IMG/VR virus record: IMGVR_UViG_3300044732_001099
Span: 22,967 to 86,966 of that record
Strand: one strand, 5' to 3'
DNA length: 64,000 nucleotides
Source: a virus
Made by a program: the position numbers and the translations under genes
The notes under the pieces: model-generated
The model's database searches: none
Told to the model about the DNA's origin: nothing
Seen by the model: only the letters and a program-made list of their open reading frames with translations
Part shown: one piece after another, positions 33,109-53,642 of the stretch
How positions within the stretch are numbered: the stretch's first letter is position 1
How the letters are laid out: every line of letters begins with the position of its first letter

Positions 33109-33972
33109 TTAAAAGATGTAACGTATTTTGTTCCATGGGATAATACTATCATGTAAAGATACAAACCGATTGACAAGTTTTGCTTTCAAATCGTGACGAT
33201 ACCTGATATTCTCAGACCCAAAAGAACTGGTTTTATTCTCTTGCCATTCTGGATTCCATAATAATTTTTCCACGTCAGCCGGCGCGTTCTCCAGGTTATG
33301 TATATGCATCTTCTCATTATGAGTTAGCATGATACATTCTGCGAGGACGTGCTTTTTTATTTTATCATCTACAATGTTATTTACTTGTTCAAACAGCTCT
33401 GTGTACAAAGCTTTTGACTCTGCCAATGCCAGTATAGGACTGAAGTTAATGTGTACGTCATAGCCTGCAGCATAAAAATCATTGATAGCTTTGATTCGGT
33501 CTACAATCTTTGATGTGTCTGGTTCCAGAATGTCAGATAGTGACTGCGGCATTAGAGAAAATCTAATCCGTATCTTTCTATTTGGATTGTAATCTAGTAG
33601 CTTTTGATTAACATACTTTGTGGCGAATGTAGCCATAGCAATAGGATGCTCTACAAAGAAATCAAATATCTTTTGCCATTCATGATACTTCAAGTGCAAG
33701 GCAAAGTCTTCGTTGCAGGAAATATCGTAGGTAGTGTAAACTGGATGTGTCTGATTAGGCTTGGTAACTGGAGTAAATAAAGCATGCTTGTTAATGACAT
33801 CTAGTATTTCATCTACATTAGTAGCCACAGACAACCCTTCCGGCTTATTACGCCGCATGTAACAATAATGGCACTTATATAAACACCCATGAATGAAAGA
33901 AGGAGTAATGAAATCACTACTCCTTCCAGATGGTTTTATATCTAATGCTTTTCTAACTACTTTTGTAATCAT
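33109..33972 (-). CDS. splB: Spore photoproduct lyase-like radical SAM protein
   Basis: GCLYKCHYCYM (CxxxCxxC), YDISCNEDF (SPL-type Cys retained), FATKY, RIRFSLMP, HINFSP, RYR; start MITKV at 33972 preferred over the ORF-track extension. Confidence 0.8.
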   Translation of the reverse strand: MITKVVRKALDIKPSGRSSDFITPSFIHGCLYKCHYCYMRRNKPEGLSVATNVDEILDVINKHALFTPVTKPNQTHPVYTTYDISCNEDFALHLKYHEWQKIFDFFVEHPIAMATFATKYVNQKLLDYNPNRKIRIRFSLMPQSLSDILEPDTSKIVDRIKAINDFYAAGYDVHINFSPILALAESKALYTELFEQVNNIVDDKIKKHVLAECIMLTHNEKMHIHNLENAPADVEKLLWNPEWQENKTSSFGSENIRYRHDLKAKLVNRFVSLHDSIIPWNKIRYIF

Positions 33973-33976
33973 AATT

Positions 33977-34255
33977 TTAATTGTATCTAAAACCCTTACA
34001 CCAATTTTTATAATTAACATGTCTGTCATGGTTATCAATAGAGCTGTATAACCATTCAAGTATTCTTCCTGCTGGCTGCTTTGTGTCAACATCATATCTA
34101 ATGTCATCAAATCCAAAGTACATCACATCGCCAAAGCATGCTATTGTACCGATGTCATTTGCTACCCATGACTCTAGAATCATGTCTTGTTTTTTGCAGA
34201 ACGCATCCATGTATGCTTCTACAATGTTTTTGTATTTAGTCTTTAAGTTGCTCAT
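33977..34255 (-). CDS. Hypothetical phage protein
   Basis: 92-aa ORF with plausible composition, tightly packed. Confidence 0.65.
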   Translation of the reverse strand: MSNLKTKYKNIVEAYMDAFCKKQDMILESWVANDIGTIACFGDVMYFGFDDIRYDVDTKQPAGRILEWLYSSIDNHDRHVNYKNWCKGFRYN

Positions 34256-38286: not shown

Positions 38287-38888
38287 AATGATAATGCTTT
38301 TTCCTCTGTTGACTCTTTTAATCTTTCAACAGCGTTAATGTAAAGATAATGAGGAGAATTGACAAATTCACCAGTTTTCATGTTCAAATAACAGATATGC
38401 TCATCAAGTGTATCAAATGTAGCCTCATCATGAACCAACTCCACGTATGGTTTAGTTCTGATATGATTGTCGCTGATAATCTCACCGGAAAAGCATTTGT
38501 TAAGTACATACCGATTAAAGTTTCTGCTATCTTCTTTGCTGTACGTAAACACATTTACACCATCAGTAACACTGGCAAACTTAGATGCCATGTCCTGTAT
38601 GTTTGTAACCGGTGCGCTCATCACAATGCTACCACCTCTAACAACAACTATGTAAACAGGAGTTGCTATTGATGTGTGGTGTACATAGTGAAGATACCAA
38701 TCCCGGGGATCTGTATGCTGTGTAATGTAGTTCTCAAAATCCCTGATATTCTTTTCAAATAATTGATTGAGAAACAAGTTCTGCTGAAATACTGACAAGC
38801 CGTCAAAAGAAACAGCTGGGCCGCCGTATACAACGACAGCCACAGCAATATTTCTATTTTGAAACTTGTTAAAAGGGAATGTTTCCAT
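38262..38888 (-). CDS. Hypothetical protein
   Basis: 208-aa ORF between the ParB-like and RadC genes. Confidence 0.65.
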   Translation of the reverse strand: METFPFNKFQNRNIAVAVVVYGGPAVSFDGLSVFQQNLFLNQLFEKNIRDFENYITQHTDPRDWYLHYVHHTSIATPVYIVVVRGGSIVMSAPVTNIQDMASKFASVTDGVNVFTYSKEDSRNFNRYVLNKCFSGEIISDNHIRTKPYVELVHDEATFDTLDEHICYLNMKTGEFVNSPHYLYINAVERLKESTEEKALSFWKISQEL

Positions 38889-40927
38889 TAGCTAATAACT
38901 TGATATTTATTTTTATCGTTTTTGTAAGCAAATGCTGTTTTGAAGTTAAGGCATTCTTTCACTTTCGTAAAGAACGAAACAAACATTGCCCTTCTTCTCT
39001 GCTCTGTATCACTAGACTTGATGATGCCTTTGATATCAAATGTCTGTAACATAGCATTTGCATTGACAAAGTTATGTTCATGCATTAAACTAGCAAGTTC
39101 TTTCATGTTGGCATTTAAATCAGTGCCATTCAGAGTTTCCTCTTTAGTTGCAGCGTTAAACATTTCAGCGCCTTTCTCCTGACAAAGTTTTATCATTGCA
39201 AGGCCTGCAAGCATACTATTAGAATCAGCATCATCATCAATAGTGTTTAGTATCTGATTTACAAGATTCTTAACACGCATTCTCATAATAAACTCACTAC
39301 CTTTGTATGGAATACCAATGTTCTTGCAGATGTAAGTAAGCAATGCTTCATCAGCTTCATCGATAGAATTGTAAATGCTTTTGCCTGTTTCATAGACATT
39401 AATGTAGCACATATCTGTGACAAACTTACGTCTGGCTTTAGCATCATCATCAATTTCTTCAGATCTTTCTGTTGCTTTCTCGGTCATATCTGCACGCTTT
39501 AACTCAATGTAGCCATACTCATTCTCGTATTCTTTCTCTAAATCTATGTTATTGTCTTTAAAGAACAGACTAAGAATATTTGGAGAATAGGATGACATTG
39601 TCATTAGATTTGCTTGTAAATATACAGTCATAGCATAGCCGGCACCAGCTTTATCAACAAGGTCTGACCCATTAGCAATCTCTTCATCAAGCAAATGCTC
39701 AATACAAGCTTTCATTGTATTGTTAATGTGAATGCCTTTAAAGAAAGCACGCAATGCATATTCAAGTTCTGCTCCTTCTTGATTAAGTCGCTTCATCAAT
39801 CTGAATACAACATCTTTTCTTGCTTGTTCTTTCAAGCTAGTAATCTTACGATTAACACGCTCAATAGCAGCATCTTGCTTTTTCTCTACATAGCTTTCTT
39901 CTGCTTTTACACTTTCAATCAAAGATGGCTTTACAAAAAACTTGATACTGCCATCATAATCCCAGCAGGCAACTTCTTCAGGGTGAGTACCCATATCGCA
40001 ATGTACATAACCCATAATGTCATATCTGTCAACAACTTTAAGTTTGTTATCATCGATAAACTTTTCCCAGTATGCTTTTGATCTAGCTTTTGTTGCATCG
40101 CTATCAGATGTTCTAGGCCTATCAAACATACTACCTACGTTGATGTACCATTTCTCTTCTTTGATATTTGGATGAACATTGCCATACAAATCAACAAAGC
40201 TTTCCTCTGGAACACTTTCAGATATTTCCGGCATGCAATAGTTAGACAATCTCAATATTTCTCTGTCATCAAGAGCTTCACCTTCTGTGTGCAAATCGCG
40301 ATCATAAATCTCATCAACAATCATTTTTTGTACAGCATCAGGCATATCACATAGTGCAGTAGCACCAGACTCATCAATAACTCCTTCAAAGCAGAGCTTG
40401 ATAGCTTCTTTGTTCAATGCTGCTATCTTGCGAAGTGATGTTGCTCTATTTACAGAAATGCCAAGCTGACTAGCAATCTTTGGTAGTGTCACGCCTTTTA
40501 CAGCAACAGCCTGTCTGATTGCATGGGCCAGTGTAATAAAGTGCTGCTCACTACGCAATACATTTTCAGTCAATGAATCGACAATGTTAATGCCATCCAT
40601 AATATAAACTGGGATTTCTGCAGTAGCGTCAATCTCCTTACACAAATCTTCATAACGAGTAACAAATGTCATTGCTCTAGTATAGCCGGCACGAACAATA
40701 TACTTACCTTTTACTTGCTCGCAGATGATTGGTTGCAGCAATAAAGAACCAGTCTTTTTGTAGGTTTCAACCATTGAACCATACATTTTATCAATAGCAT
40801 CACCGTATGGAGTAGCATCGTTTACGTCATAATCTATGCCAGCAAACCTAGGATTAGGCACAGAAAAGTCAAGCAAATCTGGAGTTACTTTTAACATTTC
40901 GTTTTTAATTTTAATATTAGAAGACAT
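38888..40927 (-). CDS. ParB/Spo0J-like protein (ParB-N plus HTH) with long C-terminal extension
   Basis: LLLQPII...YIVRAGYTRAM (divergent GxRR box), TENVLR (ENxxR), HTH TLPKIASQLGISVNRATSL; 679 aa. Confidence 0.75.
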   Translation of the reverse strand: MSSNIKIKNEMLKVTPDLLDFSVPNPRFAGIDYDVNDATPYGDAIDKMYGSMVETYKKTGSLLLQPIICEQVKGKYIVRAGYTRAMTFVTRYEDLCKEIDATAEIPVYIMDGINIVDSLTENVLRSEQHFITLAHAIRQAVAVKGVTLPKIASQLGISVNRATSLRKIAALNKEAIKLCFEGVIDESGATALCDMPDAVQKMIVDEIYDRDLHTEGEALDDREILRLSNYCMPEISESVPEESFVDLYGNVHPNIKEEKWYINVGSMFDRPRTSDSDATKARSKAYWEKFIDDNKLKVVDRYDIMGYVHCDMGTHPEEVACWDYDGSIKFFVKPSLIESVKAEESYVEKKQDAAIERVNRKITSLKEQARKDVVFRLMKRLNQEGAELEYALRAFFKGIHINNTMKACIEHLLDEEIANGSDLVDKAGAGYAMTVYLQANLMTMSSYSPNILSLFFKDNNIDLEKEYENEYGYIELKRADMTEKATERSEEIDDDAKARRKFVTDMCYINVYETGKSIYNSIDEADEALLTYICKNIGIPYKGSEFIMRMRVKNLVNQILNTIDDDADSNSMLAGLAMIKLCQEKGAEMFNAATKEETLNGTDLNANMKELASLMHEHNFVNANAMLQTFDIKGIIKSSDTEQRRRAMFVSFFTKVKECLNFKTAFAYKNDKNKYQVIS

Positions 40928-49371: not shown

Positions 49372-49713
49372 CTAGATAAATGTTTTAAATGATATAATCT
49401 TTTTAATCTCTTCGATACTACTCACTGCATCAGCATCACTGCCATCATCGTCTTTACTACTGCCAACAATGAGAGCATTGCCAATCAGCTGTTGTTCACC
49501 CCAGGTATTACCCTCTACGTTAATGACAAAGCCATTCCTATTTGTTTGGAACAATCCCTCATCATCAATGTACATGTAGTCACCATTGTCAAAGCTATAA
49601 CCTCCAGCTATGATATCGCAGCCTATTAAACTGCGAATCTCACGAAAGTCATTTCCTTTTATTCTGGCTTCGTATACTTGTTTGTCATTAGAATCTATGA
49701 ATATCGCTCTCAT
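49372..49713 (-). CDS. DUF3846-like protein
   Basis: MRAIFID...IRSLIGC....MYIDDEGL...LIGNALIVG. Confidence 0.65.
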   Translation of the reverse strand: MRAIFIDSNDKQVYEARIKGNDFREIRSLIGCDIIAGGYSFDNGDYMYIDDEGLFQTNRNGFVINVEGNTWGEQQLIGNALIVGSSKDDDGSDADAVSSIEEIKKIISFKTFI

Positions 49714-49901
49714 AACTCTGATTCTTTATACAAGTTATTAGATGCAGCTATACATAAAAAACCACCAATGATATAAAGAACCATAATGGTAGCACTAAAT
49801 AGTACACTGTGTGAATGATCATCAGCAGCAACAAATACAAAGCTGCCAACAAACGCAAAGATACCCATCAAGAAAAAGATGGCACTAAAAAATAGTTTCA
49901 T
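49710..49901 (-). CDS. Small two-TM membrane protein
   Basis: Start MKLFF at 49901 (ATGA overlap); two hydrophobic helices. Confidence 0.6.
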   Translation of the reverse strand: MKLFFSAIFFLMGIFAFVGSFVFVAADDHSHSVLFSATIMVLYIIGGFLCIAASNNLYKESEL

Positions 49902-50440
49902 GATTGTGTGTGTTTTAAAAATAAAAGAATGTTTTGAATAAATGTTTCGCCAGTAACTGATGTAGTTATATCCCCTTCTTGGATTTGATAACAACACTGA
50001 TGTAATGTTAAATCAGATCTATACTCGTCATAGTTTCTGATTATATCTAATGATAGTAACAATCTATACGATGAGTTAAACCAGATGGTAAGTACAACTG
50101 ATACACACTCATGTATTATTTTCTTACTGTCATAGTCAAACTCTGTAGAATAGTTATAGTCATTACTAATGTCATAATGTATATCATTACATACAAAATG
50201 CCTTGTATCACCATCAAAGAACTCAAGACTATACTCATCATCAAAAGTTATTCCACTACACTTAAGTGCATGAGATACTAACTCATCTGCTATGCAACTA
50301 AGATATAGTTCAACAGCATACTTATGAGTATTAGCATCTCCATCATCTATGATAGACTGTAACAGTAATAAAGATAACTCTACATCACTAGCCAAGAATA
50401 ATGTAGAGCATTTCTTTATCATATCATCTAGTTCCTGCAT
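49898..50440 (-). CDS. Acidic hypothetical protein
   Basis: Start MQELDD at 50440; ORF track starts at 50509. Confidence 0.55.
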   Translation of the reverse strand: MQELDDMIKKCSTLFLASDVELSLLLLQSIIDDGDANTHKYAVELYLSCIADELVSHALKCSGITFDDEYSLEFFDGDTRHFVCNDIHYDISNDYNYSTEFDYDSKKIIHECVSVVLTIWFNSSYRLLLSLDIIRNYDEYRSDLTLHQCCYQIQEGDITTSVTGETFIQNILLFLKHTQS

Positions 50441-50574
50441 GATGGTCCAATCATAGCAAAGAATGTAAGAACAGCTGTAAACAATGTAGGTAACTGTGTC
50501 CAAGTACAATAAAGGAATAATGACAACACAATCGTCATCATTATCCCCCAGTTATTAGAGATAAACTCTTTCAT
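50428..50574 (-). CDS. Small membrane protein (48 aa; not in ORF track)
   Basis: Hand translation MKEFISNNWGIMMTIVLSLFLYCTWTQLPTLFTAVLTFFAMIGPSCRN*; fills the gap between neighbours. Confidence 0.5.
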   Translation of the reverse strand: MKEFISNNWGIMMTIVLSLFLYCTWTQLPTLFTAVLTFFAMIGPSCRN

Positions 50575-50578
50575 ATTA

Positions 50579-50803
50579 CTATTGATTTCTTAACCAAAGA
50601 ATATGATAAAATACTACTACACCCATACACTGTACTATACTCTTCTCAGAGTTATACTTAACATCAGACATAATGAAGTCATAACTATCTTTAGATAGCA
50701 TACCAGTTTCTGAAATCTCTTTTACAAATACATCAGACTTCCAACCCATAAGGATATCTAATGTTTCTTGTACAATCTGAATGTCACCAATAATAGTTTC
50801 CAT
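50579..50803 (-). CDS. Hypothetical protein
   Basis: 74-aa ORF with AT-rich leader. Confidence 0.6.
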   Translation of the reverse strand: METIIGDIQIVQETLDILMGWKSDVFVKEISETGMLSKDSYDFIMSDVKYNSEKSIVQCMGVVVFYHILWLRNQ

Positions 50804-50958
50804 AATAATATATTTAGTTTAGTTATAAAATCACCTATAAATAAAAACATTCAATCACTCACAGTATCAGTTAGTATAACACTAATAGAGTTGTGCGATG
50901 TGATGTAGAGTAGAGTAATGCGCAGCAGATGGTAGCCACTCACACCTTTTCTCTATCA

Positions 50959-50974
50959 TGTTCCACGTGGAACA
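50959..50974. promoter_or_regulatory. parS: Perfect chromosomal-type parS palindrome TGTTCCACGTGGAACA
   Basis: Exact 16-bp palindrome matching the bacterial chromosomal parS consensus; intergenic, near the strand switch. Confidence 0.8.
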
Positions 50975-51060
50975 ATAGCACTAACAGTCTGACAGTCAAC
51001 GCTATAAGTAAATCATTATCTAATAGTTATGCATCTTACTAACAGTAGTATGAACATTCT

Positions 51061-51092
51061 AAAAAAACCCCACGTCCGAAGACGCAGGGATC
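51061..51092 (-). terminator. Intrinsic terminator with cUUCGg tetraloop
   Basis: Minus strand CCCTGCGTC-TTCG-GACGTGGGG-TTTTTTT right after the stop at 51097. Confidence 0.9.
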
Positions 51093-51096
51093 TTTC

Positions 51097-51474
<378 letters not shown>

Positions 51475-51570
51475 AATACATGAAATTAAAAGAGTTAGAT
51501 AATGATTTAACGCGGGGGTACGATACATTAAGTGCCCTCCCGTCTTTTTTCTTTTTCCTCTACCAAAAAC

Positions 51571-51602
51571 TTGCATAAAACGTACTATCTGTGTATATTG
51601 TG
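51571..51602 (+). promoter_or_regulatory. Putative rightward promoter
   Basis: TTGCAT-N17-TATATT; also TTG-N20-TATATTGTG, close to the Bacteroidota -33/-7 consensus; about 35 nt before ATG 51636. Confidence 0.5.
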
Positions 51603-51635
51603 CCATTATTCGTTCACTATTAAATCTATATTATT

Positions 51636-52142
51636 ATGCAGACTAGGGTAAATTATTATGTAAGGACTACTACTGGTGGTCATGTAAAGTTGGGTACATT
51701 GGTTACGACTAAAGATTGTCGGGTACCGGGGGTAGTTGAGGAGGTTGGAAGATTGTTGGGGGTAGATGGGTGGAACTGTTATGAGGTGAATGGGAAGATG
51801 GTTGTTGATGGCCCTGGTATTCCTAGTGAGAGTGTGTATGATTTTGTTGTTAGTCATACTGGTCAGGCTATGAGTTTGAGGTATGATGATGGTATTGATG
51901 TGAGTAAGTTTGTTGTACCGAAGATAGGGGGGTATAAATATATTGCACCGGTTGTTGGGGATGAGGTTGTTGAGTCGGATGAGGCTGGTGCTGCTCCTAG
52001 TGAGAGTGTTGGGGTGTTGAAAGAGCCTGATTATAGCAAAATGAAGAAGGCTGAGTTGCTGGAGATACTTGGTGATGATGGTGATGGTAGGTTGAGTAAG
52101 GCAGAGTTGGTAGAATTGATTGTTAATAAGTTAAAGAAGTAG
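51636..52142 (+). CDS. Hypothetical protein with C-terminal Rho_N/HeH-like domain
   Basis: C-terminus DYSKMKKAELLEIL...RLSKAELVELI. Confidence 0.65.
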   Translation: MQTRVNYYVRTTTGGHVKLGTLVTTKDCRVPGVVEEVGRLLGVDGWNCYEVNGKMVVDGPGIPSESVYDFVVSHTGQAMSLRYDDGIDVSKFVVPKIGGYKYIAPVVGDEVVESDEAGAAPSESVGVLKEPDYSKMKKAELLEILGDDGDGRLSKAELVELIVNKLKK

Positions 52143-52146
52143 GATT

Positions 52147-52449
52147 ATGATGTCTATATTGGAATATTTAGAATGGCGTGGTGTTAATGTTGATGACTTT
52201 AATGATCGTATGTGGTGGATTGGTTGGGAGGATGCTCATTGTATGGGTAGGAGTTATGATGGCTGGAAGTTGTTGAGCAGTAGCAACGATGGTAGCTATG
52301 AAAAGTACGCTGCATTGGTTGTTGATTACTTGCTTTATTGTAAGTCTGTTATTGAGAATGTTAGCAATCATTATGTTTTTAATGAGCCGGGGGTATCTTA
52401 TGAGGAAGTGATTGTTGGTAGTCAGAGGGGAGGGGCTTGTCATGAATAG
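52147..52449 (+). CDS. Hypothetical protein
   Basis: 100-aa ORF in the operon. Confidence 0.6.
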   Translation: MMSILEYLEWRGVNVDDFNDRMWWIGWEDAHCMGRSYDGWKLLSSSNDGSYEKYAALVVDYLLYCKSVIENVSNHYVFNEPGVSYEEVIVGSQRGGACHE

Positions 52450-52774
52450 GTCGTTTCTTGTTTACGGTGGCATTACTGCTGTGAGTTTGATATTTATGAT
52501 GTTGCAGATAGCTTTTACTAGGTATAGTATTGTTAAGGCTGACAAACTAGATGATCAGGTTACTAAGGTTATGCATGATTTACAGGTTTTGGATGTTGAG
52601 GTTAGGATGAGGGATAGTATGTTGGTTAGGAGTATTGAGAGTAGTTATAAGAAGATAGAGGAACTGACAGAAATTCGTAAGATGAACCAGAAGCAGATTG
52701 ATAGCTTACATGATGTTATTTTAGATGACATTAAGGAGATAGAGGATTTGAAAGATGACTTGTTAAAATGGTAG
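52442..52774 (+). CDS. N-terminal TM plus coiled-coil protein (spanin-like?)
   Basis: Start MNRSF at 52442; single TM followed by a heptad-rich region. Confidence 0.55.
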   Translation: MNRSFLVYGGITAVSLIFMMLQIAFTRYSIVKADKLDDQVTKVMHDLQVLDVEVRMRDSMLVRSIESSYKKIEELTEIRKMNQKQIDSLHDVILDDIKEIEDLKDDLLKW

Positions 52775-52805
52775 TGTTTATTTTTCACTTTTAAATATTT
52801 GTATT

Positions 52806-53642
52806 ATGTACGAAACTAAGGTTTATGATTTGCTCGTAACTAAGATGCGAGCTTTTTTTAGGGGCAGAGGGTTCAAGGAAGTTCCTACTCAATCAAGGTT
52901 ATCGATACTTGCGGCATGTGAGAATCCGCATAGTATTGCCACTTTTAATTACAATGGCGATATCTGGCCTTTACCGCAGACAGGACAGATGTGGTTAGAG
53001 CATGAGTTGCTTAATAATCCTGAATGGGATGGGGTGTATTGTATTAGTACGAGCTATAGGCAGGAGAAGAATCCGATACCTGGTCGTCATGAGTTGATAT
53101 TTCCTATGTTTGAGTTTGAGAGTAAGGGTAATATGAATGTGATGCTAGAGCTTGAAAAAGATTTGTTGCAGCAATTAGGGTTTAGCACTGGTGTTGATGT
53201 TGATTATGACGATATCTGTGTTGCCTATGGCACTGAGATTATCGAGAATGAGCATGAATCAAGGTTGAGAGAGGAGCAGGGCGATGTAGTATTTTTGAAA
53301 AACTTTCCATTGCGTACTAATCCTTTCTGGAACATGTACTGTAAGTATGCTGATATCTATGCTAAGTGTGATGTCATCATGTATGGGCAGGAGACTATTG
53401 GCTCGGCACAGAGAAGCAGTGATCCAGAGAAGATGCGTGAGAACTTTTATACAATTGAAGGTGGCAAGTATGCCGAGAAATTGTTTGAGTTGTTTACCGA
53501 GAAAAGAGTTGTTGCTGAACTAGATAAGTTTTTGCAGCATAAGTTCTTCGATCGTTTTGGTGGTGGCATAGGAATGACCAGACTAGCAAGAGCCTGGAAC
53601 ATCAAGGAGTTTGAAAACAAAATACAGGATGTCCGGATATGA
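52806..53642 (+). CDS. Class IIb aaRS paralogue (Asn/Asp-RS catalytic domain only); possible asparagine synthetase
   Basis: Motif 1 FFRGRGFKEVPT, LPQTGQMWLE, motif 2 SYRQE..RH..FPMFEFE, GQETIGSAQR, motif 3 GGGIGMTRL; no N-terminal anticodon-binding OB fold; 278 aa. Confidence 0.85.
   Translation: MYETKVYDLLVTKMRAFFRGRGFKEVPTQSRLSILAACENPHSIATFNYNGDIWPLPQTGQMWLEHELLNNPEWDGVYCISTSYRQEKNPIPGRHELIFPMFEFESKGNMNVMLELEKDLLQQLGFSTGVDVDYDDICVAYGTEIIENEHESRLREEQGDVVFLKNFPLRTNPFWNMYCKYADIYAKCDVIMYGQETIGSAQRSSDPEKMRENFYTIEGGKYAEKLFELFTEKRVVAELDKFLQHKFFDRFGGGIGMTRLARAWNIKEFENKIQDVRI

Follow-up and report, generated by a model that had tools for sequence, protein, structure and literature searches.

A conserved chromosomal-type parS site in a lake crAss-like phage lineage, with host ParB as its most likely reader

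Why does a crAss-like phage from lake water carry a site of the kind at which bacterial chromosomes are bound by the partition protein ParB, and which protein, that of the host or one of the phage's own, would read it? Besides binding parS, ParB also loads SMC. Once bound, it forms a clamp that closes in a CTP-dependent manner and spreads to the adjoining DNA (PMC12704722). As described in PMC8375218, crAss-like phages persist for a long time although they are unable to lysogenise, and a conserved host centromere site offers a concrete, testable handle on this persistence without lysogeny. The DNA analysed here, hereafter the window, is a stretch of 64,000 nucleotides comprising bases 22967-86966 of an 86,966-bp IMG/VR virus record, and all positions given below are those of the window. 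An earlier description of the window, referred to here as the original prediction, drew attention to a perfect palindrome in it and proposed several roles for this element, which are considered below together with the evidence that bears on them.

The letters of the palindrome, TGTTCCACGTGGAACA, were confirmed at the very position at which it had been predicted, and they conform to the TGTTxCACGTGxAACA type of 16-bp palindrome that is characteristic of chromosomal parS sites. The assignment to this type, likewise part of the original prediction, is borne out base for base: in a published site table (PMC4368675, Table 1), parS2 and parS3 of Pseudomonas aeruginosa equal the phage 16-mer at 16 of 16 positions, and this sequence is an experimentally used ParB site. 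A search of the whole 86,966-bp record for further copies, which had been recommended, returned this single site as the only match at two mismatches or fewer, and also as the only GTTNCACGTGNAAC core at one mismatch or fewer. By our own arithmetic from 35% G+C, the exact 16-mer is expected about 7e-6 times per 64 kb, which is of the same order as the 1.5e-5 put forward earlier, and dinucleotide shuffles of the window contained 0.14 matches even when up to three mismatches were allowed. No second perfect 16-bp palindrome of any sequence occurs in the genome, of which Markov shuffles contain 2.08 on average. Half-sites are not enriched (GTTCCAC, n = 8, with 5.6 +/- 2.4 expected). Because of its uniqueness, the shuffle counts and the low expectation, the palindrome is real and beyond chance.

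The surroundings of the site differ in part from what had been supposed. The 293-nt gap at 50804-51096, in which the palindrome lies, is the largest intergenic gap of the window, as claimed, and the genome contains a gap of 554 nt elsewhere. The palindrome had also been placed at the divergence point, where transcription and skew switch, and this was wrong: the strands diverge in a separate intergenic region, located 500-660 nt rightward of the palindrome (Table 1), and the sign of the GC skew reverses near 51.5 kb. One leftward gene, which encodes a 125-aa protein, and the terminator of that gene separate the palindrome from the divergence point. Genes run leftward between 50803 and about 33100, and from 51636 onwards the remainder of the window is occupied by rightward genes. 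The palindrome is thus placed behind a terminator and heads a 15-kb leftward operon, in which small variable genes are followed by the genes for Gam, Erf, an SSB-like protein, the ParB-like protein discussed below, and RadC.

Table 1. Features of the palindrome locus and the gene of the ParB-like protein (positions in the window)
Feature	Position	Strand	Description
P0001, 679-aa divergent ParB/Noc-superfamily protein	38888..40927	-	ParB-like N-domain and HTH at residues ~25-215
74-aa gene, first of the leftward operon	50579..50803	-	variable; missing in relative G002
Non-coding block around the palindrome	50830..51100	none	~270 nt; pairwise identity 83-100%, 100% at 50956-51005
Perfect 16-bp palindrome TGTTCCACGTGGAACA	50959..50974	none	identical to chromosomal parS (P. 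aeruginosa parS2/parS3)
Promoter-like element of the leftward operon	50972..50999	-	-35 TTGACT (50999-50994), 16-nt spacer, TG-extended -10 TATTGT (50977-50972)
Intrinsic terminator of the 125-aa gene	51068..51089	-	9-bp stem, TTCG loop, T run
125-aa gene with poly-Glu tract	51097..51474	-	between the divergence point and the palindrome
True divergent intergenic region	51475..51635	none	94-100% identity among 4 genomes
Rightward promoter-like element	51571..51599	+	-35 TTGCAT (51571-51576), -10 TATATT (51594-51599); within the divergent region

In the stem of the terminator, one pair is altered on both sides, from T-A to C-G, in the relatives G001 and G003. The 125-aa protein has no family match, PADLOC included, and no Protein Atlas match at 0.9 or above. 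In the divergent region, inspection by eye shows an inverted repeat rich in G+C, with a T run behind it, on the plus strand at about 51511-51556. The first rightward genes (51600-52800) show a GC skew of +0.52 to +0.64 in 400-nt windows, which is far above that of the rest of the genome. A minus-strand ORF at 51606-51857 is probably spurious, because it is antisense to a 168-aa rightward ORF. The leftward block has at its distal end (33109-34116, minus strand) a gene for a spore-photoproduct-lyase-like radical SAM protein (PF20903, E = 3.1e-28). The rightward genes include a stand-alone gene of class II aminoacyl-tRNA synthetase type (tRNA-synt_2, phrog_29758; 52806-53642, plus strand), relatives of which, 63-72% identical, are carried by viral contigs of various sizes, at least 596 in number.

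A promoter-like element overlaps the palindrome itself. The last three bases of its -10 hexamer are the first three of the palindrome, and a transcription start about 7 nt beyond the -10 would hit the palindrome's centre. We tentatively read this element as a possible promoter of the leftward operon, because it has the right orientation, lies directly behind the terminator and ahead of the operon, and because promoters of this type are in use in phi14:2. The middle promoters of this crAss-like phage, which has a flavobacterial host, are reported to be -35/-10-like (sigma-70-like) and to be read by both the host RNA polymerase and that of E. coli (bioRxiv 10.1101/2020.03.07.982082). Promoter-like matches are not enriched in the region, where 8 were found and shuffles gave 7.9. 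A stricter pattern matched twice in 11 intergenic gaps, compared with 2.2 matches expected from the genome-wide rate, and the two matches are the leftward and the rightward element of Table 1. The motif TAnnTTTG, which is the -7 element of Bacteroidota, is absent from both non-coding regions. Rfam likewise returned nothing near its gathering score for the palindrome region or the divergent region (the best match, sX6, reached 18.2 bits, with a gathering score of 40), and the fold of the putative leader RNA is not unusual (z = -1.57).

Comparison with relatives for positional conservation had been proposed as a check, and it found the 16-mer invariant in all close relatives. The exact site is present once each in the genomes G001, G002 and G003 and in the metagenome contig L212, which together with the window makes five of five close relatives; all five are closely related, their ParB-like proteins being 90-96% identical. 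It is also unaltered in contigs from each of the four lake runs examined, which may carry the same lineages as the IMG/VR records. In the most divergent of these contigs, 13 differences fall within 50847-51099, and none within 50903-51006. Pairwise identities, computed in 50-nt windows among four genomes, place the palindrome in the best-conserved 50 nt of its region, within the non-coding block of Table 1. The 125-aa gene (51100-51470) is less conserved than this block, at about 74%; left of 50800 the sequence is mosaic, with 0-50% identity. The divergent region, measured over 51475-51650, reaches 94-100%, above the surrounding genes, and does so without any parS. Because the entire block of about 270 nt is conserved, the relatives give no signal that is specific to the 16 bases. 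The genes that come first behind the conserved block (49700-50800) are mosaic even among these close relatives: G002 is without the 74-aa gene, and other genomes carry different DNA in this place.

More distant relatives are few. The contig L213 is syntenic with the phage and encodes a ParB-like protein of 49% identity; its 18.3 kb contain no site at three mismatches or fewer, and they include 520 nt upstream of the ortholog of a 203-aa gene, where more leftward genes lie. Three further relatives, recognised by capsid proteins of 46-49% identity, are uninformative fragments from which both the ParB-like gene and a parS core are missing. Nor does phi14:2, a cultured crAss-like phage, contain a site when up to one mismatch is allowed. 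GenBank phages gave no match to the region by blastn, nor to the ParB-like protein by tblastn, and protein searches with each of the two genes flanking the site found no relatives.

The same palindrome is widespread among bacteria. In species-representative bacterial genomes, the exact 16-mer was found at at least 137 places, in many phyla and often in clusters, and the matches listed include Flavobacterium soli, an Algibacter metagenome-assembled genome (two copies) and Chitinophaga solisilvae (five copies). F. soli possesses a parA-parB operon. In the phylum to which this species belongs, the exact 16-mer occurs in 23 of 301 genomes, compared with 0 of 301 for the reversed control, and GTTNCACGTGNAAC cores occur in 66 of 71 genomes, compared with 4 of 71 for the control. 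Usually the core is present in two copies with about 1.9 kb between them, and single clusters combine C/G, T/A and mixed variants; one ParB in this phylum would evidently accept both the C/G and the T/A variant.

Viral sequences carry the palindrome as well. It was found in at least 121 IMG/VR contigs, compared with 3 for the palindrome read backwards, which is an enrichment of at least 40-fold; among the 121 matches listed, neither blastn nor tblastx related any to the lake phage. Besides the record of the lake phage, ten large viral records that carry the palindrome (80-116 kb, six of them at least 94% complete) were searched for ParB_N and for the family of the phage's own ParB-like protein, and neither was found in any of the ten, while the positive controls were matched; judged by the capsid family, again with a matching positive control, none of the ten is crAss-like. 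On this count of ten, an orphan host-type parS is the usual state on phages, and it would be workable only through host ParB. The enrichment in viral contigs, mostly genomes without a ParB of their own, suggests that the borrowing of host ParB may be common among phages and under-reported in print. Five complete genomes of phages that are not crAss-like (81-106 kb, direct terminal repeats, CheckV 100%) each bear an exact parS and no detectable ParB, namely L149, L157, L161, L167 and L196 (G315, G316, G318, G319 and G322), and in L157 two copies of the palindrome are 500 nt apart. By a crude test that is too rough to use, 25 of 82 parS sites in other viral contigs fall outside any frame of at least 100 codons.

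As to the phage itself, the label crAss-like given in the original prediction is confirmed by matches to the crAss capsid (Crass_capsid, PF23898, E = 9e-15, and E = 1.8e-16 in a repeat scan) and to the crAss muzzle (PF25731, E = 1.6e-39). Although CheckV estimates 61%, the record is probably nearly complete, because direct terminal repeats are present in a relative of 87,877 bp. A 2-kb stretch was found in 24 public runs; lake or freshwater metagenomes make up 22 of these, and at least half of the sampled words of the stretch are contained in 15. There is no RNA run among them. Bacteroidota make little use of Shine-Dalgarno sites, and Shine-Dalgarno-like words stand upstream of 4 of 77 ORFs, compared with 7.3% at random places, which fits a host from the Bacteroidetes. 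According to PMC7886860, crAss-like phages infect Bacteroidetes, and the host of the lake phage is probably a bacterium of the Bacteroidota. The family of the ParB-like protein was not found in GTDB genomes, so that prophages and bins give no clue to the host.

That the phage is without ParA, as had been stated, is supported by family scans, in which no scanned ORF matched a ParA-type family, and by a six-frame search, in which no KGGxGK[ST] motif appeared. The scanned ORFs contain no match to integrase or plasmid-replication families either. The original prediction had considered a phage-plasmid, and this reading is not upheld: the scans gave no ParA-type ATPase with a deviant Walker A motif, and the parS, which is of the host type, does not lie beside the gene of the ParB-like protein. 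In the ORFs scanned across the record, no family of DNA polymerase, primase or replicative helicase was matched, which would be unusual for a crAss-like phage, unless the reason is merely divergence. The replication-related families that were found belong to recombination and repair only (Erf, a weak SSB match, a Gam-like protein, RusA and RadC). One open frame in the structural block spans 7,503 codons (6518-29029, plus strand); three 2,500-aa pieces of it have no PHROG or Pfam match, and DFDxD, described as catalytic in the virion RNA polymerases of crAss phages, is absent from this frame and from every other ORF.

The candidate reader encoded by the phage, P0001, is a product of the leftward operon, and its gene lies 10,032 nt downstream of the palindrome. 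The protein has 16 homologs in a large protein collection, none of them named. A profile of 14 homologs matched Noc (7ng0, E = 9.8e-6), ParB (4umk, E = 2e-4) and Spo0J (6sdk, E = 0.0038) in the PDB, and KorB (1r71, 8qa8) only at E of about 0.3-0.5. An hhalign comparison with the ParB of F. soli gave a probability of 85% and E = 6.2e-6 over residues 63-246. P0001 thus shows the profile-level homology across N-domain and HTH that marks the ParB/Noc/KorB family. Nevertheless, it falls below every curated cut-off of four ParB-family models (HTH_ParB, PF17762, 16.4 bits against a cut-off of 22.6; parB_part, TIGR00180, 18.9 bits against 58.45; nucleoid_noc, TIGR04285, 24.8 bits against 315; ParB_N, PF02195, no match at an E of 1e-3 or better). 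The gene had been described as encoding ParB-N and HTH domains, and this description stands at the level of the superfamily; it does not extend to a ParB_N match or to any curated family.

The residues of P0001 give a more precise picture. Its family retains the N-domain motifs NPRF, SLLLQP, GxTR and ENxxRxxQ. The segment SGERRLRA of F. soli ParB aligns with AGYTRAMT of the phage protein, so that the GERR patch (Box II, CTP) becomes GYTR, and of its arginines one is left, which is invariant in the family. The F. soli segment GKKRSTIANY aligns with GISVNRATSL, and GHGR with SGAT. The parS contacts K171, R173, N178, G201 and R204 of Caulobacter ParB are replaced by I157, V159, S164, S187 and T190 in this alignment of distant proteins, and the exchanges of the two parS-reading residues, R173 and G201, for V159 and S187 are to be read with that distance in mind. 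P0001 is best described as a genuine, though highly divergent, relative of ParB and Noc with a different reading head, an apparently altered nucleotide pocket and about 450 extra C-terminal residues. Its C-terminal part has no Protein Atlas match at 0.9 or above, and lineage-specific fusions of the ParB fold are described as common in phages (PMC12704722). No palindrome common to the genome and L213 is usable as an alternative site for P0001.

With moderate confidence, we propose that the parS is kept under selection in this lake crAss-like lineage, and that its most likely reader is the ParB of the host, probably one of the Bacteroidota, and not P0001. Host ParB is favoured because the site is host-type to the letter and the parS-reading residues are missing from P0001, and because contigs with distant P0001 homologs have no site in their available DNA, while the ten other parS-bearing records have neither ParB_N nor the P0001 family. 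The original prediction had named host ParB with SMC or the phage's own ParB as possible users of the site; of these, host ParB is the one favoured here, and the phage protein, with its contact residues replaced and its scores below the cut-offs, is not. Host ParB would nucleate at the phage parS and load CTP-dependent sliding clamps onto the phage DNA. Such clamps could tie the phage genome to the partition machinery of the host, which would provide for its inheritance or positioning in a non-lytic or carrier phase, as in phi29 with Spo0J. Provided that the promoter call is right, ParB on parS would also hinder the leftward replication-recombination operon, since the site covers the -10 and the start of the promoter-like element. 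A parallel is found in P. aeruginosa, where ParB at the intergenic sites parS3 and parS4 is reported to repress the adjacent promoters (PMC5521831).

Several observations count against this proposal. We infer the phylum of the host, and we predict binding from sequence. Conservation extends over the whole block of about 270 nt, among five relatives that are all close, and no site was seen in the 18.3 kb of L213 or, at one mismatch or fewer, in phi14:2. The phage has a single site, compared with five in phi29; the promoter overlap is a consensus match of a kind that is not enriched; and the exact variant is present in just 23 of the 301 genomes of the candidate host phylum.

It is unlikely that P0001 itself reads the site, either as a KorB-like autoregulator of its own leftward operon or as a genome organiser that works without ParA. 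The gene and the site co-occur in five of five close relatives, and the gene belongs to the very operon that the site heads. Moreover, the protein has an HTH of ParB/Noc type together with the retained N-domain motifs, and KorB, a repressor of the ParB family, is among its weak PDB matches. However, where the host-type protein has GERR, P0001 has GYTR, the protein stays under all curated cut-offs, and one would not expect a protein whose reading head has changed to keep its site at the exact host sequence. In the available DNA of the contigs with more distant homologs (L213, L214, L215 and L216) no site occurs, and the family is missing from all ten of the other large phage records with the palindrome.

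Host ParB as the reader also has to be compared with explanations in which the phage protein has no part. The site may not be a ParB site at all, in which case another regulator would use it as an operator, or it would serve as a hairpin-type start for an injected phage RNA polymerase or as part of a replication origin, and its identity with parS would be coincidental. The near invariance of the whole block and not of the 16-mer alone, the equal conservation of 51475-51635 without parS, and the absence of the site from L213 and phi14:2 would all be compatible with such a function, as would the early transcripts of phi14:2, which are described as having no shared known motif (bioRxiv 10.1101/2020.03.07.982082). 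We nevertheless hold this explanation to be improbable, given that an exact match at 16 of 16 positions is expected only about 1e-5 times per window, that the palindrome exceeds its reversed control at least 40-fold in viral contigs, that nothing in Rfam approached its gathering score, and that the leader fold is not unusual.

Highly doubtful, in our judgement, is the use of the site as a decoy, by which replicating phage genomes would soak up ParB-CTP clamps and so disturb the segregation of the host chromosome or the loading of SMC. This explanation shares the sequence evidence for the binding of host ParB, it would be compatible with the enrichment in many unrelated viral contigs, which fits any benefit obtained through host ParB, and the copy number of the phage would presumably multiply the single site. 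The present data do not separate a decoy from a tether; yet several sites would help a decoy and exactly one is found per genome, and titration would not call for a constant location in front of an operon. Least credible of all is a hybrid system, in which host ParB clamps at parS would be joined or capped by a specificity-shifted N-domain of P0001 while its C-terminal 450 aa would recruit recombination or replication proteins or replace ParA, although, if true, it would provide a crAss-like phage with a ParA-less route to persistence and inheritance without lysogeny.

With host ParB as the preferred reader, the lake phage can be set beside the systems already known. The original prediction knew of no such system in a crAss-like phage, and our literature search, too, found no description of a host-type parS on crAss-like phages; for phages in general the statement does not stand, as a host parS on the virulent phage phi29 has already been published (PMC2731898). 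What is new here is the position of the phage site relative to the divergence point, its possible overlap with a promoter, the examination of the reading head of P0001, the control for enrichment, and the count of orphan sites on large phages. KorB of the IncP plasmid RK2, a ParB-family transcription repressor that acts at palindromic promoter sites, is the model for P0001 as the reader, but KorB reads its own operator and not a host parS. The closest likeness in sequence is to P. aeruginosa, whose parS2 and parS3 share their 16-mer with the lake phage (PMC4368675). As reported in PMC5521831, an intergenic parS beside a promoter of P. aeruginosa lowers the activity of this promoter when ParB is bound, and the parS of the lake phage adjoins a promoter-like element as well; the sites of P. 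aeruginosa, however, are chromosomal, near oriC and accompanied by parAB, whereas the lake phage has a single orphan copy.

Phage-plasmids with ParABS, such as P1, have in common with what is proposed for the lake phage that a centromere-like site on the phage genome is bound by ParB (PMC11652158). In P1-type systems, as described in the same source, ParA, ParB and an adjacent private parS form an operon on a plasmid prophage, whereas the lake phage is without ParA and without plasmid or lysogeny genes, its ParB-like gene is 10 kb away, and its site is of the host type. The nearest precedent is that of the virulent Bacillus phages phi29 and Nf, which, according to PMC2731898, bear the ParB site of the host chromosome without a partition operon; in the same way, the lake phage carries a host-type parS with neither a partition operon nor a lysogeny module. 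In phi29, host Spo0J acting through five parS sites places the phage genome in the prespore while the lytic cycle is suppressed (PMC2731898). That system, as described there, thus relies on five sites and on spore entrapment in a Firmicute, whereas the lake phage is crAss-like, has one site and probably infects a non-sporulating host of the Bacteroidota; in addition, its site lies on a promoter-like element, and the phage encodes a divergent ParB-like protein of its own.
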